A DNA stretch of 26,909 bases from a bacterium (GTDB taxonomy: Bacteria; Patescibacteriota; Minisyncoccia; JAHIHE01; DAOWLE01). Of this stretch, positions 3,664 through 26,802 are shown piece after piece. The notes under the pieces are model-generated. The model was not told where the DNA came from and made no database searches. It worked only from the letters and a program-made list of their open reading frames with translations. Location of the stretch: the NCBI GenBank assembly GCA_030643545.1, contig DAOWLE010000025.1, positions 1 through 26,909 on the forward strand. Reading direction: 5' to 3'. A program made the translations under genes and the position numbers. The first letter of the stretch is position 1. Each line of letters begins with the position of its first letter.

Positions 3664-4479
3664 TTACTGGGCAATGAAAAATATTTCATCAGCTTTTATA
3701 ACGCCACTTTTTTCAAAAACACCTTTTACAGTAAACGGCCAAGGCGGACCATTCCAATTTTTAAGCAAAGAATAAAATTCAGAAAAAGTATAATAATTAT
3801 CTACTATAAATTTTCCTTCATCATATACGCCCCTATAAAATTTTGTAGAATCAGCAGTTAACACTTTTACATTTTTAGACTCTGATTGAGTTTGTCCTTC
3901 AAAACTTTTATTAACTAAATCAAAACTTTCAGCATCAATAAAAATGCTTATATTTTCAGATTTACTTTTTTCTTTAATGCTAAAATAATTATCACTTTCA
4001 TCGGATTCTCCTGGCTTACCCTTTCTTACAAATACTTGAATTTTATAGTTATCTCCCATCTGTATCAAGTTATCTTCTGTATCAGTAAGATCCCAATTAT
4101 ACATACCTGTATTTGGAACTGAAAAAGCAATGTAATTAGCGAGATTCCATTTTCCTTCTTTAATAAGGTAAATATCAACTTTTTTTTCTATATTAAGAGA
4201 AGATTTCCATTTAATCTCATAATTATTCCCAATTATCCACTTTTCTCCTCCGTTGGGAGAAATTACTTTAATATAAGGTTCTGTTTCATCAACAATTTCT
4301 GATTCTTCTGACTCTTTTTCAATCAACGGTTTAGTAATTTCATTTCTATTTTTTCCCAATTCAGAACCGCCACCAAAATATTTCCAGCTTGCAAAGCCAA
4401 CCGTGCTGATGGCAACAACGCCGACAATGATAGCGATGATAAGATAGAGATTTCCTTTTTGAAAATTTTGATTGCTCAT
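3664..4479 (-). CDS. hypothetical membrane-anchored/secreted protein
   Basis: 271-aa ORF with an N-terminal TM/signal anchor (LYLIIAIIVGVVAISTVGFA). It is followed by an acidic linker and a predicted beta-rich ectodomain. No recognised catalytic motif. Confidence 0.55.
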   Translation of the reverse strand: MSNQNFQKGNLYLIIAIIVGVVAISTVGFASWKYFGGGSELGKNRNEITKPLIEKESEESEIVDETEPYIKVISPNGGEKWIIGNNYEIKWKSSLNIEKKVDIYLIKEGKWNLANYIAFSVPNTGMYNWDLTDTEDNLIQMGDNYKIQVFVRKGKPGESDESDNYFSIKEKSKSENISIFIDAESFDLVNKSFEGQTQSESKNVKVLTADSTKFYRGVYDEGKFIVDNYYTFSEFYSLLKNWNGPPWPFTVKGVFEKSGVIKADEIFFIAQ

Positions 4480-4557
4480 AATTTCTTACTTTCTTTATTC
4501 TAAAACTCAAAAGTTTTAGAAAGATAAAAATGATTAATTATTTATAAATATTTAAAA

Positions 4558-4953
4558 CTAAATCGTTTTCAATAATTCATCCATCTTTTTCACAAAAATT
4601 TCTGCTTTTTCAACAGCGTCTTGCGCGTCTTTTTTATTTATTTTAACTTCTTCTCTGTAATCAGCGTCTGTTCTTGCTTCTTGAACTACTGAAAGCATTT
4701 TTGAATAATTTTTATCAACTATTCCAGTTTTTACAAAATATTTCCTCCATAACAAGCCAATTCCTTGATGAGTTTTTGGCTCTTCTTTTTTAAAAATCAA
4801 AACCGCTTTTGCCGCATAAAACATAGCGTAATAAGCCCTTGAAACAGCGTCGCGATATTTTCCGGCTTTAAATAAAATTTGGGCAGATTCTAATTTATCT
4901 TTTGCCAATTTAATTCTCAATTTAGCAAATTCTTTTTTCTTTTTTGGTTCCAT
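4558..4953 (-). CDS. hepT: HEPN domain protein (putative toxin of HEPN/MNT pair)
   Basis: 131-aa all-helical ORF. Its start overlaps the end of the upstream nucleotidyltransferase gene by 37 nt. Family assignment rests on size, the YYAMFYAAKA helix and this genetic coupling. Confidence 0.6.
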   Translation of the reverse strand: MEPKKKKEFAKLRIKLAKDKLESAQILFKAGKYRDAVSRAYYAMFYAAKAVLIFKKEEPKTHQGIGLLWRKYFVKTGIVDKNYSKMLSVVQEARTDADYREEVKINKKDAQDAVEKAEIFVKKMDELLKTI

Positions 4954-5270
4954 AATTCTATTGCGTCTTTTTTAACATTTTCTAAAAAAGGAGTCCATTT
5001 ATTAAATTCTTTCTTTGGCAAAATCCGTGGAGAAATTTCCACCTCGTATTCAAGCATCGGATCAGTAGCCATTTCAATCATTTTTTTCCATTTTTCTCGG
5101 TTCGCTTTCTTGTTTGTAATTAATAAAATATCAAGGTCTGAATATTTATGATAATTTCCTCTTGCTTTAGAGCCAAAAAGCATCATCCTTTCTATAAGAG
5201 TCGGATAATTTTTTCTCAAATTATTTTTATAATCAGTTAAGGCTTTTTTTTCTTTGATATTAAGAGACAT
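4917..5270 (-). CDS. mntA: minimal nucleotidyltransferase (MNT, putative antitoxin)
   Basis: 117 aa with the GSKARGNYHKYSDLDILLI motif (GS...DxD, the pol-beta-like nucleotidyltransferase signature). Located upstream of and overlapping the HEPN gene. Confidence 0.75.
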   Translation of the reverse strand: MSLNIKEKKALTDYKNNLRKNYPTLIERMMLFGSKARGNYHKYSDLDILLITNKKANREKWKKMIEMATDPMLEYEVEISPRILPKKEFNKWTPFLENVKKDAIELWNQKRKKNLLN

Positions 5271-7041: not shown

Positions 7042-7071
7042 GATTTACGATTTAAGATTTACGATTTAAGA
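7042..7071. repeat. gatttaYgatttaaga tandem repeat immediately upstream of the corA start
   Basis: gatttacgatttaagatttacgatttaaga lies 6 nt upstream of the corA ATG. Related copies occur at 11401-11439, 11823-11845 and 22273-22290. Confidence 0.7.
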
Positions 7072-8760: not shown

Positions 8761-9696
8761 ATGGTTGCAATAGAAACATTAGCGTGGTTATCAGTAATTA
8801 TTGCGCTAATGTTAATATCTTCTTTTTCTTTGATAATCTATATGGTTCTTTTCAGAAAAAAACAACCAACTCCCCAACAACCAATTCCAGATGAAGAATC
8901 CGACCAACCCGAAGCCCAACAACCCGAACAGCAATCTGAAACAGCAACACCCAGAAAACTTCCAATTGGAAAAGTAATCGCCACGATTCTTGTGATAGCG
9001 ATAATAGCAATACCACTCGGGATATTTTTTTCTCTTCCCGGAGATACTAGCGATAAAATCGAAAAAGGGAAAGATACAATTGCAAAGATTACAGGAAAAC
9101 AAGAAATTCCAGATATTCCAGTAGAATGCGTTGATTATCTCTACGATTTCAGCAACCAGTCGCAAATGAACAAAGTGAAAACAAGCGATTATACAGAAAT
9201 ATCAGTAAAAAACGAAAAATTAATAGTAAGAGCAGAAAATAAAGACGAAACTGCAACGATATATCTTGCGCTTGACAATAAATTCCAAAAGCGAAAAGCA
9301 ATAAAAATACAAGCAATAGCAAGAATTAATGGATTAAACAACGCAAAATGCGGTCTCGGATCTGTTATTAAAGACAGTATTCTACGAAGAACAGTTTTTA
9401 ATGGAAAAGAAATAGATTTTTTTCCAGACGGAGAAAATTTTAATTTTCCAGATAATCGCGCTGAAAACGGAGAATACGAAATTGCTTTCGCAAGAATAAT
9501 CAGCAACGATAATAAAACAGCAAAACTTAGAGCTCTGGTTAATCCATCATTCGGCGAAAAATACGAAGAAATATCATCGCCATACGATTTATTTTTAGAA
9601 AAAAATCTAAGCAATATAGGAATAGATTTTTACAGCGATAACAGAGAAAGCCAGTTAGAAATTTCAGAAATAAGAATTTACGCCAGTGAGAATTAA
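8761..9696 (+). CDS. hypothetical 2-TM membrane protein, translationally coupled partner of the SPFH protein
   Basis: 311 aa. Its ATG lies 4 nt after the SPFH stop and is preceded by AGGAGG. It has two TM helices separated by a Pro/Gln/Glu-rich linker, then a ~200-aa extracytoplasmic domain. No clear NfeD OB-fold motifs were recognised. Confidence 0.6.
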   Translation: MVAIETLAWLSVIIALMLISSFSLIIYMVLFRKKQPTPQQPIPDEESDQPEAQQPEQQSETATPRKLPIGKVIATILVIAIIAIPLGIFFSLPGDTSDKIEKGKDTIAKITGKQEIPDIPVECVDYLYDFSNQSQMNKVKTSDYTEISVKNEKLIVRAENKDETATIYLALDNKFQKRKAIKIQAIARINGLNNAKCGLGSVIKDSILRRTVFNGKEIDFFPDGENFNFPDNRAENGEYEIAFARIISNDNKTAKLRALVNPSFGEKYEEISSPYDLFLEKNLSNIGIDFYSDNRESQLEISEIRIYASEN

Positions 9697-9952: not shown

Positions 9953-10396
9953 TTACTGTGTAACAAAACCAATAATTAGTTGTACGATCGCGTAAGATAA
10001 AGCGGCAATCAATAATCCGAAAAGAGCAGAGACCAACGCCTTTTTTGCATTCTCTACCTTTGTTTCATCTCCTCCGGCAGTTAGATAAGTCAAACCTCCG
10101 TAAGCGAACATAAAGATGGACATCAGAACAATAAAACCGACCACCCATTTAACAATTTTTTCAACAATTGTTATAAAATCAGTTTCAGTGCCGGCGTACC
10201 CGACATCGCCCGGGTTTGGCATTGTTAAGCCACTTCCTGAGCTGCTTCCCGAGCCGCTTCCTGGTATGGCATTCCCATACTGATCATAAGTCACAGCCTG
10301 AATATCAGAAACTAACGATAAACCAAAAACTGGTCCGGCTAATAATCCAAACATAAAAACAACCATCATTATTTTTCCAATTTTTCCCATTTTCAT
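9953..10396 (-). CDS. small secreted protein with TrbC/VirB2-like (T4SS-pilin-like) C-terminal double-TM domain (P1)
   Basis: The track ORF starts at 10411. The GGAGGTG there is better read as the Shine-Dalgarno for the ATG at 10396 (MKMGKIGK...). The product has a signal peptide/TM, a Gly/Ser linker and a C-terminal hairpin of two hydrophobic helices. That C-terminus carries the motif AYGGLTYLTAGGDETKVENAKKALVSALFGLLIAALSYAIV. The two downstream paralogs share this motif. Confidence 0.6.
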   Translation of the reverse strand: MKMGKIGKIMMVVFMFGLLAGPVFGLSLVSDIQAVTYDQYGNAIPGSGSGSSSGSGLTMPNPGDVGYAGTETDFITIVEKIVKWVVGFIVLMSIFMFAYGGLTYLTAGGDETKVENAKKALVSALFGLLIAALSYAIVQLIIGFVTQ

Positions 10397-10517: not shown

Positions 10518-11393
10518 TTATCCCGCGAGAATATCAACCAATGTATTCACAATCGCGTACGCCAGGACAACAACTAAAAGTCCTAAAATAGCGTAAGTCA
10601 ACGCTTTTTTTGCTGTATCAGCTTTCTGCTGATCCCCGGCGGAAATCATATACATTGCCCCGCTTATAATAATCATTAAAATCGCGATTAAAATTACAAT
10701 TTTTAAAAGCCACTTAATTAAATCCTCAAGAATTTCAGAAAGCGGTTTGCTCGAAAGATTTACTGTTGAACCGCTGCTTGTTGATGCCGGTTCTTGAACA
10801 GTTATTCCGCCATTGCCTGTTGGAAGTTGTGAGGTTGTAGGAGTTGTGGGAATTGTGGGAGTTGTGGGAATTGCATTTGCGTTTGTTGGAAGCTGTGGAA
10901 CAGTTGAAGCTATTTGACAAGTTCCTTCGTAGCAACAAACACCACTAGTACAATGCCTTGGACCGCTTGGTACAACACTAACACCCCCCGTACATTCACT
11001 TATATCAATGCATTCTTGACCACCTACAGATTCGCAATCAGTTAGAGGAGGAGTTGAAGACGTTTTACATTTTCCATTAATGCAACCGTTCGGACAATCA
11101 TCCACTTTAAAAAGAGATTGATTACAATCACAAGTCATCCCCCCCCATCCTTTTTTACAACCAAATCTAACTGATTTTTGATTATTTTCAACGCAAAAAG
11201 CATAATCGTAATTGTTTTCGTCGTCGCAATCATCACGGCTACCAGCGCACCAATCATTAGCTGTCATTCCATCATAAGTAATATTATTATCACTACAACG
11301 ATAATCTTTAGCAGAAACTTTCTCTCCCACTCCCAAAATTCCCAAACAACTCACCATTAAAATTAAAGTAAATAATAAAATTTTTTTGTTCAT
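10518..11393 (-). CDS. secreted Cys-rich protein with Pro/Thr linker and TrbC/VirB2-like C-terminal double-TM domain (P2)
   Basis: 291 aa with a Sec signal peptide (cleavage near VSA-KD). The ~140-aa domain has about 20 Cys (KDYRCSDNNITYDG...GCKKGWGGMTCDC...). A PT-rich linker (IPTTPTIPTTPTT) follows. The C-terminus carries GAMYMISAGDQQKADTAKKALTYAILGLLVVVLAYAIV. The N-terminal domain is paralogous to 11848..13083. Confidence 0.65.
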   Translation of the reverse strand: MNKKILLFTLILMVSCLGILGVGEKVSAKDYRCSDNNITYDGMTANDWCAGSRDDCDDENNYDYAFCVENNQKSVRFGCKKGWGGMTCDCNQSLFKVDDCPNGCINGKCKTSSTPPLTDCESVGGQECIDISECTGGVSVVPSGPRHCTSGVCCYEGTCQIASTVPQLPTNANAIPTTPTIPTTPTTSQLPTGNGGITVQEPASTSSGSTVNLSSKPLSEILEDLIKWLLKIVILIAILMIIISGAMYMISAGDQQKADTAKKALTYAILGLLVVVLAYAIVNTLVDILAG

Positions 11394-11400
11394 AAAACAA

Positions 11401-11439
11401 TGATTTATGATTTAAGATTTATGATTTACGAATGATTTA
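11401..11439. repeat. gatttaYgattta repeat between the P2 start and the 3' end of the four-helix-bundle gene
   Basis: tgatttatgatttaagatttatgatttacgaatgattta lies 7 nt upstream of the P2 ATG and overlaps the last codons (FVNHKS*) of the four-helix-bundle gene. An inverted copy lies at 11823-11845 on the other side of that gene. Confidence 0.7.
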
Positions 11440-11798
11440 GTTTTTTGAATTAATCCTTGTAAAAGTTGATGAGCTGAATTTATTTGATCTACTAATTTAT
11501 TAAAATTTTCTTCGTTAAGATAATTGACATCTTTAGCGATCAAAATTTGGTTTTTTAATTCAATCAAAGAACCTTGCGCAATATAATAAAACTGGACTTT
11601 TTCTTTATAAGTTTGTCTTCCAAATCCTTCAGCAATATTCGATGTGATAGAGACAACTGCTCTTCGCATTTGACTGACTAATCCGAATATTTCTTCTTTC
11701 GGAAATTCCTTTGTGATTTTATAAACTAAAATTACTATTTGATGTCCTTCTTGCCATGTTTTTAAATCTGTAAATGATTTTATTTTTTGATTATTCAT
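11412..11798 (-). CDS. four-helix-bundle protein (23S rRNA intervening-sequence protein family)
   Basis: 128 aa with DLKTWQEGHQIVILVYKITKEFPKEE...SQMRRAVVSITSNIAEGFGR..YKEKVQFYYIAQGSLIEL. These are the characteristic helices and the WQ..h/NIAEG motifs of the TIGR02436 / 23S_rRNA_IVP family. Confidence 0.75.
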   Translation of the reverse strand: MNNQKIKSFTDLKTWQEGHQIVILVYKITKEFPKEEIFGLVSQMRRAVVSITSNIAEGFGRQTYKEKVQFYYIAQGSLIELKNQILIAKDVNYLNEENFNKLVDQINSAHQLLQGLIQKTKSFVNHKS

Positions 11799-11822
11799 AA
11801 ATCGTCAATTCCTTAATCCTAT

Positions 11823-11845
11823 TCTTAAATCATAAATCGTAAATC
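11823..11845. repeat. inverted copy of the gatttaYgattta repeat, upstream of the four-helix-bundle gene
   Basis: tcttaaatcataaatcgtaaatc is the reverse complement of the repeat family found at 7042, 11401 and 22273. Together with 11401-11439 it brackets the four-helix-bundle gene as an inverted pair. Confidence 0.65.
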
Positions 11846-11847
11846 TT

Positions 11848-13083
11848 CTATTGAACTCCCAAAATATCTTTTAACTCCGTAATAATTGACCAAGATAAAA
11901 TAACAACTCCCAGTCCCACAACAGCGTAAAGAATTATATTTTTCGCTTTTTTAATTCTTTCCTCGTCGCCGGCAGAAGTAATATACATTAATCCGCCGAT
12001 AATTAAAAATAAAATTGCCAAAGAAACCACAATTCCCAAAATCCAATTGATAATTCCCATAATCAGCGCCTCAAAACTATCAGTGCTTAAAGGATTATTA
12101 AACCTAACCGCTCCGCCACTACCACCAGTATTGCTTCCACCCATACCACCTCCATTATTAACCGTTCCTCCGCCGCCCTCGTTACAATCAGAACCAGAAA
12201 CACAACGAATTTTTCCTTTGGATTTTCCATTACATGTTCCTTCGCAACTACTTGGTCCGCATATTTCAGCTTCTTGATTATCACATTCATCATCAGGATT
12301 ACAACCAATATTTATCCAATAACAAGGATTTGGAGTAGTTGTTGAAATAGGATTACATTGCCCTATACAACAAACTCTACTACCAGAACATCCTGATACG
12401 TCTAATTTTTCTTGCGAACATGTATTTTTATTTAAATCACAACAACTTCCTCCTGCGTCAGAACAAGTTTGAGTTTTTGGAACACAACTTTCTGGCTGAC
12501 AACAAGTACCGCTGGAACATTCTCTCGGACCTTCAAATACAACTTTTGAACAATTATTTGTTCTCAAATCACAACATATTTGACCACTTACAGATTCGCA
12601 CTTACAATATTTTTCCTTACAACAAAAACCGCTGGAACATTCTCTCGGACCACTTGCTACAAAACCGCTACAGTCTTTCTCATCACAACATACTTGACCG
12701 CTTACAGATTCGCAAGCAGTCGCCGGAGGAGTTGAAGACATTTTGCATTTTCCATTCACGCAACCGTTCGGACAATCATCCACTTTAATAAAACTACAAT
12801 CACAAGTCATCCCCCCCCATCCTTTTTTACAACCAAATTGAACTGATTTTTGATTATTTTCAACGCAAAAAGCATAATCGTAATTGTTTTCGTCGTCGCA
12901 ATCATCGCCCCAAATGCCTCCTGCGCACAAATCGTTAGCTGTCCTCCCATTATAAGTAATATTATTATTATCACAACGATAATCTTTAGCAAAAATTTCT
13001 CCCCCCACTCCCAAAATTCCGAAACAGCTCGCCATTAAAATTAAAGTAAATAAAAAGTTTTTGTTTTGAAATAAATTTTTCAT
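11848..13083 (-). CDS. secreted Cys-rich protein with duplicated Cys modules, Gly-rich segment and TrbC/VirB2-like C-terminal double-TM domain (P3)
   Basis: 411 aa. A signal peptide is followed by an N-terminal domain near-identical to P2. Nucleotide blocks around 12780-13020 and 11100-11340 are almost identical. Internal repeated modules are CESVSGQ(V/I)CCD...GPRECSSG(F/T)CC. The run GGGGTVNNGGGMGGSNTGGSGG is Gly-rich. The C-terminus carries GGLMYITSAGDEERIKKAKNIILYAVVGLGVVILSWSII. Confidence 0.65.
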   Translation of the reverse strand: MKNLFQNKNFLFTLILMASCFGILGVGGEIFAKDYRCDNNNITYNGRTANDLCAGGIWGDDCDDENNYDYAFCVENNQKSVQFGCKKGWGGMTCDCSFIKVDDCPNGCVNGKCKMSSTPPATACESVSGQVCCDEKDCSGFVASGPRECSSGFCCKEKYCKCESVSGQICCDLRTNNCSKVVFEGPRECSSGTCCQPESCVPKTQTCSDAGGSCCDLNKNTCSQEKLDVSGCSGSRVCCIGQCNPISTTTPNPCYWINIGCNPDDECDNQEAEICGPSSCEGTCNGKSKGKIRCVSGSDCNEGGGGTVNNGGGMGGSNTGGSGGAVRFNNPLSTDSFEALIMGIINWILGIVVSLAILFLIIGGLMYITSAGDEERIKKAKNIILYAVVGLGVVILSWSIITELKDILGVQ

Positions 13084-13123: not shown

Positions 13124-14026
13124 TTAAAAAATCAAACTAAAATAAATATCTTTTATAATTTCTCCCCAGAGCATCATTATAATCGTTGCCGCGACTAAGA
13201 AGGGTCCAAAAGGAATCTGGCTTTTGATAGATTTTATTTTTAAACCGATGAGAATTAAACCGATTGCCGCGCCCAAAATAAAAGCAAGGAATAGAGCAAA
13301 AAGAATATTTGGCCAACCGAGAATAAGTCCCATTAAAAAAGCCAATTTAACATCGCCAAATCCCATCCATTGACCTTTTGATATTAAAATTATTAGAAAG
13401 AAAAATCCAGCGGCGATGATAGCAGAGAAAATAGTATTTAGTATATCGTATATTGTATATTGTATAAAAATACCAGATACTAAATACCAGATACTAAATA
13501 CCAAAATAGCTGGAAAAATTATTTTGTCTGGAATAATGTAATGTTTTAAATCGTATACAAAAATTACTATTAGAGAACAAAGAATGAAAAGCAAAGAACA
13601 AAAAGCAATGAACAATGAACAGAAATTTAAAAGATTGTCATTCCCAACTTGATTGGGAATCCAGGCAGATAAGAAATGATTTGAATACTGGATTCCCGCC
13701 TGCGCGGGAATGACAGAAGAAGCGGGAATGACAGAAGAAAAAAAACCTAAAAAATTAAAAAATAAAACAAACAATATTCCTGTTCCTATTTCCACTAATG
13801 GATACTGAATTGAAATTGGTTTTCCGCAGTATCGGCATTTGCCAAAAGTGGAAATAAAACTTAAAATCGGAATCAAATCAAACCATTTCAAATTTTTTTT
13901 ACAATGCGGACAGCGCGAGCGAGAGAAAAAAAATTCTTCTTTTGTTTTCAAACGGCAGATAACAACATTTAAAAAACTGCCGACAATAAGCCCGAAGATA
14001 AAAATAAAGAAAGAAATAACAAACAT
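13124..14026 (-). CDS. pilD: prepilin peptidase (A24 family) carrying an in-frame repeat-derived insertion
   Basis: 300 aa. The N-terminal Zn-binding tetracysteine motif is CPHCKK...CRYCGK. The LNVVICRL and YPLVE motifs are present. The catalytic region VYDLKHYIIPD is followed by the downstream multi-TM A24 domain (GFGDVKL). About 45 extra residues (SSVIPASSVIPAQAGIQ...) lie between TM2 and the first catalytic Asp. These are encoded by the palindromic repeat at 13635-13740. Confidence 0.8.
   Translation of the reverse strand: MFVISFFIFIFGLIVGSFLNVVICRLKTKEEFFFSRSRCPHCKKNLKWFDLIPILSFISTFGKCRYCGKPISIQYPLVEIGTGILFVLFFNFLGFFSSVIPASSVIPAQAGIQYSNHFLSAWIPNQVGNDNLLNFCSLFIAFCSLLFILCSLIVIFVYDLKHYIIPDKIIFPAILVFSIWYLVSGIFIQYTIYDILNTIFSAIIAAGFFFLIILISKGQWMGFGDVKLAFLMGLILGWPNILFALFLAFILGAAIGLILIGLKIKSIKSQIPFGPFLVAATIIMMLWGEIIKDIYFSLIF
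13635..13740. repeat. palindromic GGAATGACAGAAGAA-type element inserted in-frame inside pilD
   Basis: ttgtcattcccaacttgattgggaatccagg...ctggattcccgcctgcgcgggaatgacagaagaagcgggaatgacagaagaa. Palindromic arms are attccca/tgggaat and ttcccgc/gcgggaa, with a duplicated gggaatgacagaagaa unit. The architecture matches the intergenic copy at 9826-9880. On the coding strand it translates as FFFSSVIPASSVIPAQAGIQ. Confidence 0.7.
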
Positions 14027-14027
14027 A

Positions 14028-14534
14028 TCAATAGTATCCTCCTTTTAAAACATAAGCTCCGCCAAATTCCAACCAACAGCCAAGATAATATCCGCAGCAT
14101 CCTTTTCCAGTGCAATCGCCGCCGATGTTTTCGTCGCAGTCCGGCTCATACCAATAATAATAAGCGGAATTATTAAAAGGATCTTTTGGAAGTATTCTAA
14201 TAATTTGATTGTCAGTAACTAATTTATCCCAAATTCCGCTGGTAACAGACCAATTATTTCCAGAGCAAGGACAAGTTCCGCATGTTCCCATACTGCTGTC
14301 GCATCCACCTTCTTCTGGATATTTTCCGGCTGCCGGATTGTCATAATAATAAATGTCTAATGCTTTTTGAATTTCTGCCAAATCAGTTTTCCGTACAGCG
14401 TCACGCGCTTTTTTCTGGGCATTGCCGACAGCAATAAAAACAACCATCGCCAGCATAGCAACAATTGTTATCACAAATAATACTTCTATAAGAGTAAAGC
14501 CAGTTTTTTTATTTGTATTTTTTTTGTTTTTCAT
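14028..14534 (-). CDS. prepilin-type (class III signal) Cys-rich pilin/pseudopilin
   Basis: 168 aa with KKTGFTLIEVLFVITIVAMLA. This is the G|FTLIE prepilin cleavage/methylation motif with Glu+5, then the hydrophobic alpha1 helix. The globular domain has 9 Cys and a Tyr-rich C-terminus. The gene abuts the pilD start by 1 nt. Confidence 0.8.
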   Translation of the reverse strand: MKNKKNTNKKTGFTLIEVLFVITIVAMLAMVVFIAVGNAQKKARDAVRKTDLAEIQKALDIYYYDNPAAGKYPEEGGCDSSMGTCGTCPCSGNNWSVTSGIWDKLVTDNQIIRILPKDPFNNSAYYYWYEPDCDENIGGDCTGKGCCGYYLGCWLEFGGAYVLKGGYY

Positions 14535-14565
14535 TTGGATTTTGAAATCTCCCCTTTTATTTAAT

Positions 14566-14595
14566 TAGCGGAGTAGGAATTTCCCCGCTCCGCTA
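14566..14595. other. GC-rich hairpin (tagcggag...ctccgcta) between the two pilin genes; possible terminator/attenuator
   Basis: 8-bp perfect stem with a 14-nt loop, downstream of pilin 14645..15079 on the minus strand. There is no clean U-run, so terminator function is uncertain. TATAAT-like sequences follow at about 14603-14612. Confidence 0.35.
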
Positions 14596-14644
14596 AATAA
14601 AAATATTATATAATCCTCGCGAGAATTTTAAATGAGAATTAAAT

Positions 14645-15079
14645 TTAATAACAAGCGCCATTAGAGCAAGTCCATGTTCCGGATTTAAGCGCTCCTGTCA
14701 GAGTATAACTAGTTACAGTTCCAGTATATTTGTAATTAGTAGCAGTTACTGGATGATCAGGCAAACGTTGGATATAAACCGTAGCGCCAGTAGAATCTTG
14801 TAATTTAAAACCGCTACAAATATTACCATTTGTAGCAGCACTGGCAATAAGACCATCAGCGCAAGTACCAACACCAGCTTCATATTCAGAATTATCCGCG
14901 TAATACATTTCCATTCCCAACATAATCTGGCTTAAATCTGATTTAACTTTCGCGTCGTTAGCTTTATTCCTCGCGTTATTTAAGGAAACCAAAACAATCG
15001 TCGCTAAAAGACCGATAATGGCGATAACAACCAAAAGCTCAATTAAAGTAAAACCTCGCTTATTTGTTTTTAACATCAT
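14645..15079 (-). CDS. pilA: type IV major pilin candidate (prepilin-type N-terminal domain)
   Basis: 144 aa with KRGFTLIELLVVIAIIGLLATIVLVSL, a canonical class III signal with G-1/F+1/E+5. Has a C-terminal disulfide loop (CSNGAC), small size and a Ser/Thr/Gly-rich domain typical of major pilins. It is the first gene after pilC. Confidence 0.8.
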   Translation of the reverse strand: MMLKTNKRGFTLIELLVVIAIIGLLATIVLVSLNNARNKANDAKVKSDLSQIMLGMEMYYADNSEYEAGVGTCADGLIASAATNGNICSGFKLQDSTGATVYIQRLPDHPVTATNYKYTGTVTSYTLTGALKSGTWTCSNGACY

Positions 15080-22272: not shown

Positions 22273-22290
22273 AAAATGATTTATGATTTA
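22273..22290. repeat. gatttaYgattta repeat immediately upstream of the pilM start
   Basis: aaatgatttatgatttac lies 4 nt upstream of the pilM ATG and overlaps the stop of the giant upstream gene. Confidence 0.6.
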
Positions 22291-25200
22291 CTATTCCTTC
22301 TTCGGTTTTACTTCTTTCCACGCTGGCATTGGTTGAGGACAGAGACATTCTCTTGTTTCTCCGGGGGCAATGCATTCACCGGGACAAAGGGCGTCATCTG
22401 TTCCGTCGCATATTTCACAAAGTCCGCTGGTATTCGGGCATTGGATATTATTATCTCCGCAGACAGTCGGACTGGCAACAGTAATTGAAACTGTGTCAGT
22501 GCTAAATCCTCCGTAAGAATCAGTGACTGTTAAATCAATGTGATAAACTCCGATAGTGTCTGGGGTGAATGCAGGTGTTGAAGAAAAAGGATCGGAAATT
22601 AATGTTCCCATTCCAAATTCATAAAGATTTTCTATTTCATCTTCTGATAAAGCTTTATTGTAAATTCTGACTTCATCTATGGAGCCGGAAAATATTTCTC
22701 CGATTATTAAATTATCTGTGTTTGTGTTTATTGCTTCTGAAAAATTTGTTTGCGCGGATTCTTCTCCATTTATGTATAAAATTTGTTTATCTCTATTATA
22801 AGTTAAAACATAATGATGCCATTCATCTAATTGCGGGACTGGCACAGACGCAGTGAGCCTGTTTCCGTTAAGAAATCCATACACTTGCGTACCATCGCCG
22901 TTTGTTTGCAATGAATACGCTCCCTGTTTTTGCAAAATTATTTGATTGGACGATTCTATTTGTTCACTCCCAGGCGCGCCAGCGCTTGGTTCTGGCGATG
23001 CGTATTTACAAACTATCACATTATCTATGTATGCTTCTCCACCATTGCCTGATGCTCCTGCACTAAAGTATATTGTATTGAGAGTTCCTGAATATGAGCC
23101 GGAATAGGTATTAAAATCATTTGATTTCAATACATCATTGACATAATAATCAAATGTTTTGTTTGTTTGGTCCGCTGTTATTTTTATGTCATACCAACTA
23201 TCTTTTGGCATATCGTAAGCAGAAGGAGTTCCTCCATTAAAAACACGAAGTTCATTTCCATTCCAAGACTTCCAGTCTGCGTGAGCAAGAGTATTTGTTC
23301 CATCAGTAAGGCTGGGAAAGCTATAAATACCCGAAGCTGCAGCTGCTTTCGGTCGAGCTTTCATAGTCATCATAAAATTATCTGAACATCCAATATTATC
23401 AGTATACACTTTCGCTCTTTGGTTAGCATAACCAAGAATATGGAGTGTTTCTGATACAATTTCTACTACTGAACCAGCTTCTTTGTCTGATAAATCCCAT
23501 TTTGATAAATCACCACTAAAATCATCAAAAAATTCAAAGGTATTTGTTCCACTACTCACAGAAGTTGCGCTTGAATTGCCATAGTACATATAAATAGCTG
23601 TTCCCGTAGAAGGAATTGACGGAATTTTGACCCAAATCTGCGTTGAAGCAGTATTGCACCCGCTTTCTAACCAAAAAGGAATTTGCGTTGTTTTATCTGA
23701 ATCCTTAATTCTAATATCTGAACAATCTGCTTTCATTTTCCCTTGAGATATTAATTCCGCTGTATCAATCGTTAAAAGCATTTGATAATCAGATAAATCA
23801 GACGATGAACCAGTGACATTTATTGGCTTATAATAGGGCCACAACGCAGGAGGGGCTACTGATTCCACTCTTGCCCATGCTTCTATGCTAATATTATCCT
23901 GGATATCCAATGAATTTGAATCAGAAATCTCAATATAATCGTCTACCCCATCAAAACTTAAAGCGTTTCCAACTTTGCCGGTTGTCCAAATTGGCGAAGC
24001 AGGTTTTAAAGTTCCGTCGTTATTATTTGCTCCAGAAGTATCATAAACAACATTTCCTAAATTCTCGTCAAAATGCCATCGACTAATCAGATTAGAAGGA
24101 GTATAATCCCAGCGATAACTAATCGTATCTCCCTCATCATGACTTCCGCTGCCGTCAAGATTGACTGAATTTCCGATAACAACAAACCGATCTAATCCAG
24201 CGTCAGCAACAGGCAATTGATTCCAAGTGGTTGCTGAAATAGAATTACTCCAATCAGAATCATAGCCATTTTTGGTTGCCATAACTTTATAAGAATAAGT
24301 TGTATTTGCGTTTAATCCGCTTCCAGATAAATCTTCTGTACTAGTTCCTGCGCCTTCCTCAAACGGAAGGTGTAACTCTAAACCAGTATCATTGCTGAAT
24401 GTGTGATTGTAGTGCTCTGCGACTTCCGTACCAGAAAGCGCGCGGTTGTATATCCGGACTTCGTCTATTTTGCCGTCAAAATCACCGTCTTGATTTACTT
24501 TTAAATTACTGCCCGAGGTTTCAATTTCATAAGAAGCTAGTTCTGAAAGGGTTTTGGTCTTCTTCAATGCCCCATTTATATACATCTTTAATTGTTTTGT
24601 TGAAGAACTATATGTTGCTAAAAGATGAGTCCATTCTGTCCCTACTGGATCTCCCCCCCAATCAGCAACCGCATGCCAATCTCCGCCAACACGCAGATAA
24701 AAATGCGCTTCATCTGCCCATGACCGAGATACATCTAAGAAGAAAGCATTTTCTTTGCGAATTATCATCTTCTGGTTATCCGCTCCCGAAGAATCTCTTT
24801 TTACCCACGCTTCAACGGTGATTTCGTCAGTGATGTTCAAACTTGCATCATTCCCGCAGTCAACATAATCATCCACTCCGTCAAATTGCAAAGCATTTCC
24901 AATTTTGCCGGTTGTCCAAACTGCATCATTATGAATAATTCCATTGTTATGATTTCCTCCTCTGTCAATTAAACCTGTATCAGGGCCGTGATAAATCCAA
25001 TCGTCTTTATCAAAACTCCAAAGATGATAAGTATCTGCCCCCCTATCAGACCAGGAAAGATTAATTGTAGAACTTGAACTAGCATTTCCATTTAACGCTG
25101 GAGCGCGAGGAATGATTTCCCAGTTTAAATCAAACCACCGTCCGCCGCAGCTGCCCCAGGCGTCATCACCGCAAGCGTCAACTGCTTTAAATTTTATTGT

Positions 25201-26802
25201 GTTCCATCCGGTGATAAATTTGTTTGTGACATCAGCCCAATCGCCATAAGCGCAACACACAAAAGGAATGTTTGCGTTACTGCTATTTATCCAAACTGTC
25301 GAAGAATCATCAACTCCGCATCGCACTTTAATATTATAATCATTTATGTCATCTATGTAAATTTTCTTTTCGCCCCATAAATCAGAAGTGCCTCCATCGC
25401 CGCCGCAACTTTCTGGTTCCCAATAAGAAGGAATGCCGTTGCATCCATCAACTGTTGCTACTCCTTCTTTAACTAAGCATCCATCATGAATATTCCAGGT
25501 GCAATAAACATCATCAATCGCGTCGCCCATTTCAGAAATACTGTTGTCTTCGGCGTCATCAGCAGAACAATTTAAAGAAAGGCAGGAACGGCAAGTGTAA
25601 TCAACACAGGAAAGAGGAGAACAGCAGGGCATTGATGAACAATCTCCGGATTCCAAAGCGCATAACATCTCTTCTTCCGTGTCTATCCCAAAACTCGCAA
25701 CCGGTTCCGGTGACGCATATTTTCTTACATACAAATCATCTATCCACAACTTCGCCTCAGCTGACAAAGATGGATTTTTGCATACTCTACATTCTTTACA
25801 ATCTCCTCCATCACAATCATGACCAGCACCACAGCCACCAATGCAACAGGGATCATGCCATGATAGTTCGTCACAATAATAATTGATTTCATTATATCCC
25901 ACAGGACAGATTGGAGCAATTACACCGGCGTCACAGTTATTTCCGTGACAATAACAATACTCAAAAGGCGCACCAGGCTCCCACCCTGTACATCTTGTTA
26001 CTGTATTTTCGCATCCTTTAGCGTAGGCGTAAAGTTTCAGTTTTAAATTATTCCCTGAAATTGTATAGCTCTTATCTGTAAAATCAGAATGTGCAGAAGA
26101 ATCCAATCCTGATTCTCCGCCGTCCTTTATAAGTTTCAATTCGTGCTTATAATCACACCTCCAATGTTGTTTATAACCTTCGCTTTTAATTTTTAAATGA
26201 GCTTTGAAATCTCCAGAACCGATTACATCTGATATTAAATCAGAAGAAACATTGCCAGGCGCTGTTTTATAAGCGCGGACATATCCGGTGCCTGTGGTGG
26301 AATGTTCAAAACCGGAGCCAGCCCATTTGCTGCTGGACGGCTCAAACTCATCAAAAAAAACAAAAGTAGCTTCTCCATTACTTACAGAATTCGCAGTTGA
26401 ATTGCCATAATACATATAAACCGTTGTTCCAGAAGAAGGAATTGAAGGAACTTTCACCCAGAATTCGGCAGTTGATGACGGTACGTATGATGCTCTCCAA
26501 TGGCTAAGCAAAGTTATATTATCAGATAACACAAATCGAATATCAGAAAAATCACTTTTCATTTTACCGCTTGCAAAGTCAACGGTAACTTTAACCTGAT
26601 AATCTGTTAAGCTCGAAGTAGAGCCGGTGATATTCACAGTATTTCTATAACTCCAAGAATAATCAAACCATTCGGAATCCGCATATGCAGGATCTGATTT
26701 AATTAATAAATTAAAACAAAGCCCGAAAAACAAAACAACTGTCAAAATAAATATTGTTGTTCTAATTGTAGTTTTAATCTTCATTGCTTTTTTTGTTTTC
26801 AT
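22291..26802 (-). CDS. giant secreted Cys-rich multidomain protein (2x DUF2341-like, 3x LamG/concanavalin-like, PKD-like modules); putative pilus-associated adhesin
   Basis: 1503 aa with a signal peptide/TM (IFILTVVLFFGLCF). Duplicated DUF2341-like modules are (SWSYRNTVNITGSTSSLTDYQVKV...FWVKVPSIPSSGTTVYMYYGNSTA) and (YYKPINVTGSSSDLSDYQMLL...IWVKIPSIPSTGTAIYMYYGNSSA). Three LamG-like modules share the G(K)xGNALxFDGVDDYxx...DEVRIYN pattern. PKD-like segments (ADAGLDRFVVIGNSVNLDGSGSHD; IDLTVTDSYGGFSTDTVSITV) and several Cys-dense stretches are present. The gene ends 22 nt before pilM on the same strand. Confidence 0.75.
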   Translation of the reverse strand: MKTKKAMKIKTTIRTTIFILTVVLFFGLCFNLLIKSDPAYADSEWFDYSWSYRNTVNITGSTSSLTDYQVKVTVDFASGKMKSDFSDIRFVLSDNITLLSHWRASYVPSSTAEFWVKVPSIPSSGTTVYMYYGNSTANSVSNGEATFVFFDEFEPSSSKWAGSGFEHSTTGTGYVRAYKTAPGNVSSDLISDVIGSGDFKAHLKIKSEGYKQHWRCDYKHELKLIKDGGESGLDSSAHSDFTDKSYTISGNNLKLKLYAYAKGCENTVTRCTGWEPGAPFEYCYCHGNNCDAGVIAPICPVGYNEINYYCDELSWHDPCCIGGCGAGHDCDGGDCKECRVCKNPSLSAEAKLWIDDLYVRKYASPEPVASFGIDTEEEMLCALESGDCSSMPCCSPLSCVDYTCRSCLSLNCSADDAEDNSISEMGDAIDDVYCTWNIHDGCLVKEGVATVDGCNGIPSYWEPESCGGDGGTSDLWGEKKIYIDDINDYNIKVRCGVDDSSTVWINSSNANIPFVCCAYGDWADVTNKFITGWNTIKFKAVDACGDDAWGSCGGRWFDLNWEIIPRAPALNGNASSSSTINLSWSDRGADTYHLWSFDKDDWIYHGPDTGLIDRGGNHNNGIIHNDAVWTTGKIGNALQFDGVDDYVDCGNDASLNITDEITVEAWVKRDSSGADNQKMIIRKENAFFLDVSRSWADEAHFYLRVGGDWHAVADWGGDPVGTEWTHLLATYSSSTKQLKMYINGALKKTKTLSELASYEIETSGSNLKVNQDGDFDGKIDEVRIYNRALSGTEVAEHYNHTFSNDTGLELHLPFEEGAGTSTEDLSGSGLNANTTYSYKVMATKNGYDSDWSNSISATTWNQLPVADAGLDRFVVIGNSVNLDGSGSHDEGDTISYRWDYTPSNLISRWHFDENLGNVVYDTSGANNNDGTLKPASPIWTTGKVGNALSFDGVDDYIEISDSNSLDIQDNISIEAWARVESVAPPALWPYYKPINVTGSSSDLSDYQMLLTIDTAELISQGKMKADCSDIRIKDSDKTTQIPFWLESGCNTASTQIWVKIPSIPSTGTAIYMYYGNSSATSVSSGTNTFEFFDDFSGDLSKWDLSDKEAGSVVEIVSETLHILGYANQRAKVYTDNIGCSDNFMMTMKARPKAAAASGIYSFPSLTDGTNTLAHADWKSWNGNELRVFNGGTPSAYDMPKDSWYDIKITADQTNKTFDYYVNDVLKSNDFNTYSGSYSGTLNTIYFSAGASGNGGEAYIDNVIVCKYASPEPSAGAPGSEQIESSNQIILQKQGAYSLQTNGDGTQVYGFLNGNRLTASVPVPQLDEWHHYVLTYNRDKQILYINGEESAQTNFSEAINTNTDNLIIGEIFSGSIDEVRIYNKALSEDEIENLYEFGMGTLISDPFSSTPAFTPDTIGVYHIDLTVTDSYGGFSTDTVSITVASPTVCGDNNIQCPNTSGLCEICDGTDDALCPGECIAPGETRECLCPQPMPAWKEVKPKKE

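Follow-up and report, generated by a model that had tools for sequence, protein, structure and literature searches.

A Patescibacterial VirB2-like pilin array with large, shuffled Cys-rich ectodomains and probable exchange of an ectodomain segment between old paralogs

VirB2-like pilin genes arranged in arrays are widespread in Patescibacteria, according to a recent survey (Quinonero-Coronel et al., 2025, PMC12102498), and in Southlakia epibionticum, the only species amenable to genetics, such an array is essential for epibiotic growth, though with no assigned role (Wang et al., 2023, PMC10633639; PMC12857230). The stretch of DNA considered here, called the window, comprises the 26,909 nucleotides of contig DAOWLE010000025.1 (assembly GCA_030643545.1). 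It is a contig of the Candidate Phyla Radiation (CPR)/Patescibacteria type, with a GC content of about 34% and a ribosomal protein S2 whose best named relatives belong to Portnoybacteria, Pacebacteria and the "Patescibacteria group" (55–63% identity). Three genes, P1, P2 and P3, lie together on its minus strand, directly downstream of a complete type IV pilus operon (Table 1). On its sequence, this locus is a member of the recently described Patescibacterial VirB2-like array class, and an architectural variant of it with large, shuffled Cys-rich ectodomains. P2 and P3 have near-identical 5' ends, and we put at roughly 0.65 the probability that the three genes form an old, conserved array in which the shared block arose when old paralogs exchanged part of an ectodomain, and not by recent duplication of a whole gene.

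The locus resembles the published Patescibacterial arrays in the nature of its host and in having PF18895/PF04956 genes in tandem or one non-pilin gene apart: there are three divergent pilin genes, with a single gene of the 23S rRNA intervening-sequence protein (IVP) family between P3 and P2. Paralog identity is low in both cases, at 34–43% here, the survey giving 25% on average and 54% at most (PMC12102498). The arrays described there differ in belonging to a virB4 cluster and in encoding small pilins, whereas the array in the window follows pilD and two of its three members have Cys-rich ectodomains of about 185 and 295 residues. Neither extended, shuffled ectodomains nor the exchange of segments between paralogs was found described in the sections consulted of the papers on Patescibacterial arrays (PMC12102498, PMC10633639). 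The VirB2 arrays of Anaplasma phagocytophilum and Bartonella are also tandem divergent copies and are read as a source of antigenic or host-range variation of a surface pilin; however, these diderm pathogens possess a full VirB system, their array genes encode short pilins of the canonical kind, and it is the pilin itself that varies, whereas in the window the pilin is conserved and a grafted ectodomain varies (PMC12102498; PMC2527338). The Mbov_0395 family of Mycoplasma integrative and conjugative elements (NCBIfam NF045849) is comparable in its monoderm cell-envelope context, and the P3 hairpin scores above the cut-off of its model, which covers 80 residues and the hairpin only; the window contains no genes of such elements. 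A further parallel in design is offered by Streptococcus sanguinis PilB and PilC, modular type IV pilins with adhesive modules grafted at the C-terminus, in which a conserved polymerization or anchor module is likewise combined with an extracellular module beside a plain major pilin. These proteins belong to an unrelated superfamily, however, and have a class III signal peptide processed by PilD.

Assignment to the VirB2-like class is based on the C-termini of the three proteins, which match PF18895 with 35.6 (P1), 47.1 (P2) and 50.5 (P3) bits (cut-off 26.6). P2 also matches the TrbC/VirB2 model PF04956 (31.5 bits, cut-off 27.9), and P3 the NCBIfam model for Mbov_0395 pilin-like conjugal transfer proteins (43.6, cut-off 40), P1 and P2 falling just below the cut-off of the latter. 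Hydropathy indicates in each protein a Sec-type signal peptide and a C-terminal hairpin with a short, charged, Lys-rich loop (SAGDEERIKKAK in P3, and SAGDQQKADTAKK), and AlphaFold2 (AF2) agrees, with helices at residues 334–370 and 374–408 of P3 at a predicted local distance difference test score (pLDDT) of about 65–73. The P2 hairpin gave no significant match in a sequence search of the PDB. P1 consists of little beyond the hairpin, unlike P2 and P3. The VirB2/TrbC-like C-termini, the third member P1 and the IVP gene had all been overlooked in a preliminary description of this DNA made from its letters and open reading frames (ORFs), which saw in P2 and P3 secreted, Cys-rich, modular tandem paralogs; the signal peptides and the modules, duplicated in P3 and shuffled, support that part of it. 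P2 and P3 were also considered as type IV (class III) prepilins. This was ruled out, since the G(-1)/E(+5) motif is missing, the sequence reading ...NFLFTLILMASC..., and PilD-dependent processing, prompted by an "FTLIL" string, was rejected for the same reason. The N_methyl profile has no match in P2 or P3, while two true pilins at 14028–15079 match it. The signal peptides of P2 and P3 have the motifs LMASC and LMVSC, the canonical LLGC being present in P0010 and P0034 (proteins and contigs of relatives are cited by P and L numbers). Beyond the lipobox-like Cys come more hydrophobic residues and an AxA-like signal peptidase I site, IFA|KD in P3; the Cys is conserved. From these motifs, P2 and P3 might carry an N-terminal lipid in addition to the C-terminal hairpin anchor.

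The pilin-like unit is multiplied in another way in distant CPR proteins with tandem PF18895 hairpins in a single polypeptide: a 414-aa protein encoded at L003 6902–8146 has four stretches matched by PF18895, and P0013 and P0041 are likewise tandem-hairpin proteins (three or four hairpins). The PF18895 arrays in L003 and L005 are located among housekeeping genes (gyrA, a solute-binding protein, metK, LytR) and not beside type IV secretion system (T4SS) ATPases.

Between signal peptide and hairpin, P2 has about 185 extra residues with 17 Cys, and P3 about 295 with 42 Cys, an even number, so that the P3 ectodomain is probably fully disulfide-bonded. In P3, the KDYRC N-domain is followed by Cys modules with the spacing C-x6/7-CC-x4/6-C-x9/10-C-x4/5-CC-x3/4-C, a distal Cys-rich cassette and a Gly-rich linker. 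The preliminary description had noted duplicated Cys modules and a Gly-rich tract in P3 and a Pro/Thr linker in P2; all are present, and P3 holds three modules in tandem, the first two being 78% identical at the nucleotide level. The distal cassette is common to the P3 of L002, with more distant versions in L001 P3, P0007 and P0009. The ectodomains match no family in Pfam or NCBIfam, and a phmmer search with the P3 ectodomain returned three matches including itself among 1.84 billion representatives, the other two being close relatives, so the domain appears lineage-restricted.

The near-identity of the 5' ends of P2 and P3 was the starting point of the preliminary description, and it is borne out. 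A repeat finder identified about 400 nt in common as three collinear direct-repeat blocks, a 112-nt core of 98% identity and two flanks of 85% and 82%. The two strings quoted as shared each occur exactly twice (0 expected by chance), and the identity spans extended blocks rather than low-complexity codon runs. The two proteins align by BLASTP with E = 3e-82, their first ~125 residues being about 82–86% identical, with identity decaying afterwards. The opposite-strand shadow ORFs had been attributed to the Cys codons, which direct codon reasoning supports: in the 12420 frame, an antisense stop can arise only where the second base of the sense codon is T or C, so Cys (TGY) and Gly (GGN) codons cannot create one. 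These plus-strand frames (12047–12277, 12420–12788, 12850–13038 and 11178–11360) lie wholly within P2 or P3.

What the preliminary description drew from this similarity, a recent tandem duplication of the gene, does not hold. Such a duplication, followed by fast 3' divergence and by module expansion in one copy, would fit two adjacent genes on the same strand with about 400 nt in common at 82–98% and a module duplication inside P3. However, synonymous divergence (dS) between P2 and P3 rises from 0.08 in the core of the N-domain, through 0.25–0.38 in the flanks of this domain and the signal peptide and 0.73 in the module, to a saturated value of ~1.1 in the hairpin. Signal-peptide DNA is 83–89% identical even between paralogs, hairpin DNA only ~60%. 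At the protein level, the hairpins are 34–43% identical between paralogs (43% for P2 and P3) and 80–96% identical to their own orthologs in related metagenome contigs (80–91% for P1, 92–96% among close orthologs for P3, and 89–96% for P2 and P3 together), although these genomes are about 15% diverged: between the window and L001, nucleotide identity is ~85% in pilC–pilD and ~89% in the hairpins. The trio P3-P2-P1 occurs in the same order in L001, L002 and L008–L012 (L009 ends within the start of P2), preceded by pilD in L001, L008, L011/L012 and L013, and in L009 as far as it extends. In L011 and L012, a DUF5678 + Asp_protease_2 gene is inserted between pilD and P3. As the hairpins are closer to orthologs than to paralogs and the trio is shared across genomes, the three genes were distinct before the genomes diverged. 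The trio thus pre-dates the genome splits and, with P2 orthologs bearing other ectodomains, the orthology of the anchors contradicts a recent duplication, which we consider very improbable. A near-identical 5' block in neighbouring genes can therefore mean transfer of a domain between old paralogs rather than recent duplication.

The contig derives from a metagenome, and repeats of 100–150 nt can mislead assemblers, such that a repeat collapse or a chimera could in principle have created the duplicated block. A further record, assembled under another ENA sample accession (L013), is nevertheless 99.96% identical to the window over 14.4 kb, with six single-nucleotide polymorphisms, all outside P1–P3, and the locus is reproduced; the absence of polymorphisms from P1–P3 in an independent assembly indicates that the block is no artefact. 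In addition, about 13% of sites differ between the copies, distributed as coding constraint would lead one to expect, and both ORFs are intact, which leaves an assembly error next to no credence. The exact P2 sequence is absent from the protein collection because L013 calls P2 with a later start.

Exchange between paralogs of an old array also accords with the mosaic structure of the ectodomains in relatives, which is compatible with the earlier view of P2 and P3 as diversifying surface proteins. These close relatives (P0002–P0010 for P3; P0014, P0015 and P0033–P0040 for P2) were reached via contigs encoding homologous proteins. Scans of genome and metagenome contigs with a P3 alignment found distant CPR pilin arrays only (Andersenbacteria, Saccharibacteria, Altimarinota, two JGI contigs), and the exact sequences of P3 and P0001 had no match in the contig index. 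When ten P3 orthologs are aligned, hardly any variation is seen in the signal peptide or in the final ~90 residues, and the middle aligns poorly and varies in length and content. Across relatives generally, the signal peptide and hairpin remain ~90–96% identical and the ectodomain is replaced piecemeal by non-homologous cassettes. Nucleotide homology between the window and L001 is undetectable over window 12709–12176; with L002, it is lost over 12588–12344 and present again over 12344–11773. P0003 (L001 P3) and P0007 have in common a ~190-residue Cys-rich cassette and the anchor, with unrelated N-terminal domains. Among P2 orthologs, that of L001 (191 aa) has only the CC module, P0038 has two such modules, P0014 and P0039 carry an unrelated beta-rich domain, P0015, P0033, P0036 and P0037 have divergent N-domains, and P0040 (442 aa) has a large unrelated ectodomain. 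Metagenomes also contain longer proteins in which other ectodomains precede a C-terminal PF18895 hairpin (P0011, P0012, P0016), so the general design is not unique to this lineage.

The exchange itself is suggested by the N-domain of P2. P3 anchors bear the KDYRC N-domain in the window, in L001 and in L002; a P2 anchor bears it only in the window (BLASTP identity of the P3 version: 90% to L001 P3, 82% to window P2, 65% to L002 P3). In an identity matrix, the window P2 N-domain is 86% identical to that of window P3 and 79% to those of P0002/P0003, and 19–34% to other N-domains on P2 anchors; being nearer to P3-anchored than to P2-anchored N-domains, it shows a relationship incongruent with that of its own anchor. 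A second case crossing the two anchors is provided by P0034 (P2 anchor) and P0004 (P3 anchor), with 53% identity. Window P2 nevertheless starts as a P2-type gene (MNKK..., its signal-peptide DNA being 89% identical to that of L001 P2) and is P2-type again from "ASTVPQLP". A P3-type ectodomain segment would thus have taken the place of its counterpart in P2 through gene conversion or non-allelic recombination, for which the conserved signal-peptide coding sequence and common module sequences could supply flanking homology.

The 98% core was initially taken for a recent gene-conversion tract, a view abandoned when the same stretch of ~100 nt proved to be 91–97% identical in every inter-genome comparison and in all pairwise comparisons of four genes from three genomes. 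This conservation includes synonymous sites, in genomes otherwise 78–88% identical. Possible causes are recent exchange between strains, a constraint linked to the G8 tract contained in the core, or another function at the nucleotide level.

The ectodomains of P2 and P3 can be seen as an addition to a minimal pilin. P1 is little more than such a pilin, whereas in P2 and P3 the signal peptide and the hairpin are separated by a long region, predicted to be extracellular and rich in disulfides, that is assembled from interchangeable pieces: an N-domain of ~90 aa with 10 Cys, one to three modules of ~40 aa (C-CC-C-C-CC-C), additional Cys-rich cassettes and a flexible Gly-rich or Pro/Thr-rich linker. 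With a VirB2 topology, both ends lie outside the cell, so the ectodomains would be extracellular; we infer that they are displayed either at the cell surface or along a VirB2-type filament that P1 nucleates. There, in contact with host cells, they would serve as variable modules for binding or as variable antigens, with cassette exchange generating the variation. A conserved chassis, variable modules and flexible linkers are what would be expected of surface-displayed binding or antigenic determinants. A pilin hairpin serving in one lineage as the conserved chassis for large, Cys-rich, rapidly exchanged modules would make these modules testable candidates for host specificity.

Several observations weigh against this combined account of exchange and display. 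With regard to donor and date, the flanks of window P2 are 85–88% identical at the nucleotide level to the resident P3 and 79–82% to the P3 of L001 or L002, and those of window P3 are 87–92% identical to L001 P3, such that window P2 is not much closer to the resident P3 than window P3 is to L001 P3. Moreover, window P2 and the L002 allele have derived features in common: the ANDWCAGSRDDCD stretch without a 6-nt (Ile-Trp) insertion, NQSLF/NLNLF and informative sites. A foreign allele may therefore have been the donor, or the exchange may be more ancient and its product since lost from relatives. Comparison of the shared domain of P2 and P3, a check put forward in the preliminary description, gave a ratio of nonsynonymous to synonymous substitution (dN/dS) of ~0.4, with no signal of positive selection there. 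AF2 yielded no usable ectodomain fold, either for full-length P3 (10 sequences, pLDDT 42.8) or for P2 residues 29–165 (11 sequences, pLDDT 52.7). Neither VirB4, VirB6 nor other T4SS machinery is encoded within the 27-kb contig, leaving assembly into a T4SS pilus unsupported here. Finally, an ectodomain of 180–300 aa per subunit would be hard to fit in a VirB2-type filament, and the hairpin may be a membrane anchor only.

These last two points lead to a different view of the hairpin, as a two-pass membrane anchor, possibly with an N-terminal lipid, of static envelope proteins (structural, wall-associated or receptors), whose variability would reflect pressure from phages or predators rather than adhesion; the account of cassette exchange would be unchanged. 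It is favoured by the lack of T4SS genes nearby, by the position of other PF18895 arrays in distant CPR loci, also among housekeeping genes, by the size of the ectodomains and by the conserved Cys in a lipobox-like signal-peptide context. The hairpins nevertheless match TrbC and pilin-like conjugal transfer models above their cut-offs, and they are co-arrayed with a minimal pilin, P1, as in the arrays published from inside T4SS clusters (PMC12102498, PMC10633639). We regard such static anchoring as unlikely, though still to be taken seriously, and display of exchanged ectodomains on VirB2-like pilins as the likelier of the two.

A second potential source of variation is a G8 run in the core of each gene. 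These two runs are the only G/C runs of at least 8 nt in the window, and both P2 and P3 have such a homopolymer (≥7–8 nt) in the 5' coding region. Each is made of two GGG codons, GGG being the rarest Gly codon (8% in the window's other genes), and a slip of ±1 truncates the proteins at residues 85–94. The P3 of L001 has the same G8 (9658–9665), and a G7 is also present in L001 (9470–9476); the P3 of L008, with a different N-domain, has a G8 (1127–1134) at a non-homologous site, and in L002 the tract is interrupted. The statistics are weak, in that 14% of windows simulated with a first-order Markov model hold some G8 or C8, and tract length does not vary between the two available assemblies, both of which have G8. 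From position and composition, it is plausible that the runs are a phase-variation switch operating by slipped-strand slippage and, if confirmed on reads, they would provide a simple marker of phase variation in uncultured CPR populations. There is an analogy with Neisseria, whose pilE/pilS system and poly-G phase variation have in common with this locus the conserved ends flanking variable cassettes, exchange between linked paralogs and early G runs. The difference is that P2 and P3 are both full genes, with no silent cassettes, and that no switching or variation in tract length is observed here.

A reverse-transcription mechanism was considered for the shared block because of the IVP gene. 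Diversity-generating retroelements (DGRs) are common in CPR genomes, and the IVP gene has weak matches to bAvd (28.1 bits) and to the DGR Avd model (27.9), such that P2 and P3 could be seen as a template/variable repeat pair with this gene as a bAvd-like accessory factor. However, the Avd score is far below the cut-off of 80, and the gene is instead a clear member of PF05635 (132.4 bits, cut-off 33.8) and TIGR02436 (122.6, cut-off 24). The mismatches between P2 and P3 are not biased towards adenine (counts include A>G 12, G>A 11, T>C 10 and T>A 9), the similarity is located at the 5' ends of two coding genes and not at a 3' C-type-lectin variable repeat, and no reverse transcriptase is present in the window or in the L013 gene list. 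The IVP gene is also missing from L001, where only 12 bp separate P3 and P2, and is reduced in L002 to its upstream region and first eight codons, followed by a jump to the P2 start. A DGR is thus highly improbable, and exchange between paralogs is maintained. The IVP gene had been viewed as an insertion specific to this contig, which was revised in the light of the L002 remnant: this looks like the result of a deletion there between AAATCATT repeats. The gene resembles those of 23S rRNA intervening-sequence proteins in its strong hidden Markov model matches and in the long inverted repeat around it, a feature also of rRNA intervening-sequence elements; it differs in lying in the spacer of a protein-coding operon and not in an rRNA gene. 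The inverted repeat is 25 nt long and 92% complementary, and the minimum free energy RNA fold of region 11394–11850 pairs both ends around the whole ORF.

The arms of this inverted repeat consist of GATTTAY heptamers, a pattern with 10 matches in the window (0.25 expected). Arrays of these heptamers occupy intergenic spacers in the window (7042–7071, 11402–11431, 11823–11845, 22278–22293) and in relatives (L001 2525–2538, 4384–4411 and 18121–18175; L009 476–513 and 2300–2347), often as inverted pairs forming hairpins and often just upstream of start codons (CorA, PilM, P2). They look like a lineage-specific intergenic repeat, putatively a terminator, a processing site or the binding site of a regulator. 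A promoter/terminator scan of the pilD–P1 region gave nothing above shuffled expectation.

Taken together, the features of the locus allow a broader, speculative proposal, which we hold to be rather doubtful: that it encodes an organelle with which an episymbiotic Patescibacterium recognizes its host. A VirB2-type filament or platform would be formed by P1, and P2 and P3 would be "modular VirB2 pilins" with disulfide-rich binding modules, their repertoire diversifying as cassettes pass between the linked paralogs or from strain to strain, and each gene would be switched on and off by slippage at G8, the invariable position after pilD reflecting co-regulation or cooperation with the type IV pilus. 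If true, this would define an "extended VirB2" class, not found described in the papers searched, and a contingency-locus mechanism in CPR bacteria.

Table 1. Positions in the window of the pilin array, its subdomains and repeats, and the adjacent genes.
Feature	Position	Strand	Basis or remark
P1, short Cys-free VirB2-like pilin, third array member	9953..10396	-	PF18895
P2, extended VirB2-like pilin gene, 291 aa	10518..11393	-	ORF, PF18895, PF04956
P2 pilin hairpin	10521..10757	-	89–95% identity to P2 orthologs, 43% to P3
P2 Pro/Thr-rich linker, P2-type from "ASTVPQLP" on	10758..10913	-	comparison with P0015, P0036–P0038
P2 single Cys module, 7 Cys	10914..11036	-	module alignment
P2 N-domain, P3-type KDYRC subtype, aa 29–118 (probable exchanged cassette)	11040..11309	-	identity matrix
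P2 signal peptide	11310–11393	-	P2-type start MNKK...
G8 homopolymer in P2, coding strand	11139..11146	-	inside core block
Inverted-repeat arm of GATTTAY heptamers	11409..11433	.	pairs with 11821–11845, encloses IVP ORF
IVP gene, 23S_rRNA_IVP/TIGR02436 four-helix-bundle family	11412..11798	-	between P3 and P2
Second inverted-repeat arm around IVP gene	11821..11845	.	pairs with 11409–11433
P3, extended VirB2-like pilin gene, 411 aa	11848..13083	-	ORF, PF18895
P3 pilin hairpin, two hydrophobic helices, loop SAGDEERIKKAK	11851..12108	-	PF18895, hydropathy, AF2
P3 Gly-rich linker, aa 301–325	12109..12183	-	sequence
P3 distal Cys-rich cassette (NPCYWINIGC...RCVSGSDC)	12184..12354	-	alignment of P3 orthologs; L002 nucleotide homology
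P3 three tandem ~40-aa 8-Cys modules	12355..12714 (12598–12714, 12469–12597, 12355–12468)	-	direct repeats, Cys-spacing alignment
P3 KDYRC N-domain, aa 33–122, 10 Cys	12718..12987	-	BLASTP against locus ORFs
G8 homopolymer in P3, coding strand	12811..12818	-	counterpart of P2 run
P3 signal peptide, aa 1–32	12988..13083	-	hydropathy; conserved in orthologs; cleavage type inferred only
Shared block, flank	10991–11113 (P2) vs 12669–12791 (P3)	.	123 nt, 82% identity
Shared block, core	11123–11234 (P2) vs 12795–12906 (P3)	.	112 nt, 98% identity
Shared block, flank	11242–11387 (P2) vs 12920–13065 (P3)	.	146 nt, 85% identity
PilD prepilin peptidase	13124..14026	-	final gene of type IV pilus operon; 40 bp upstream of P3

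Upstream of the array, the type IV pilus operon encodes PilM, a PilN-like ORF, PilO, PilB, PilT, PilC, the two N_methyl pilins and PilD, and the other neighbours on the contig include genes for SPFH and CorA as well as rpsB and tsf. Directly upstream of pilM, on the same strand, is a gene (22291–26802) for a 1503-aa protein with two Laminin_G_3 (concanavalin-like) domains, two DUF2341 domains and one PKD domain, possibly a giant surface or adhesin protein tied to the type IV pilus operon. Between rpsB and tsf, the window contains three genes (3664–5270; also in L013), encoding an MNT-type nucleotidyltransferase (4917–5270), a HEPN protein (4558–4953) and a 271-aa ORF (3664–4479). In L001 (15440–16607), tsf directly follows rpsB, and the genes in the window are a toxin-antitoxin-like insertion into this conserved ribosomal gene pair.

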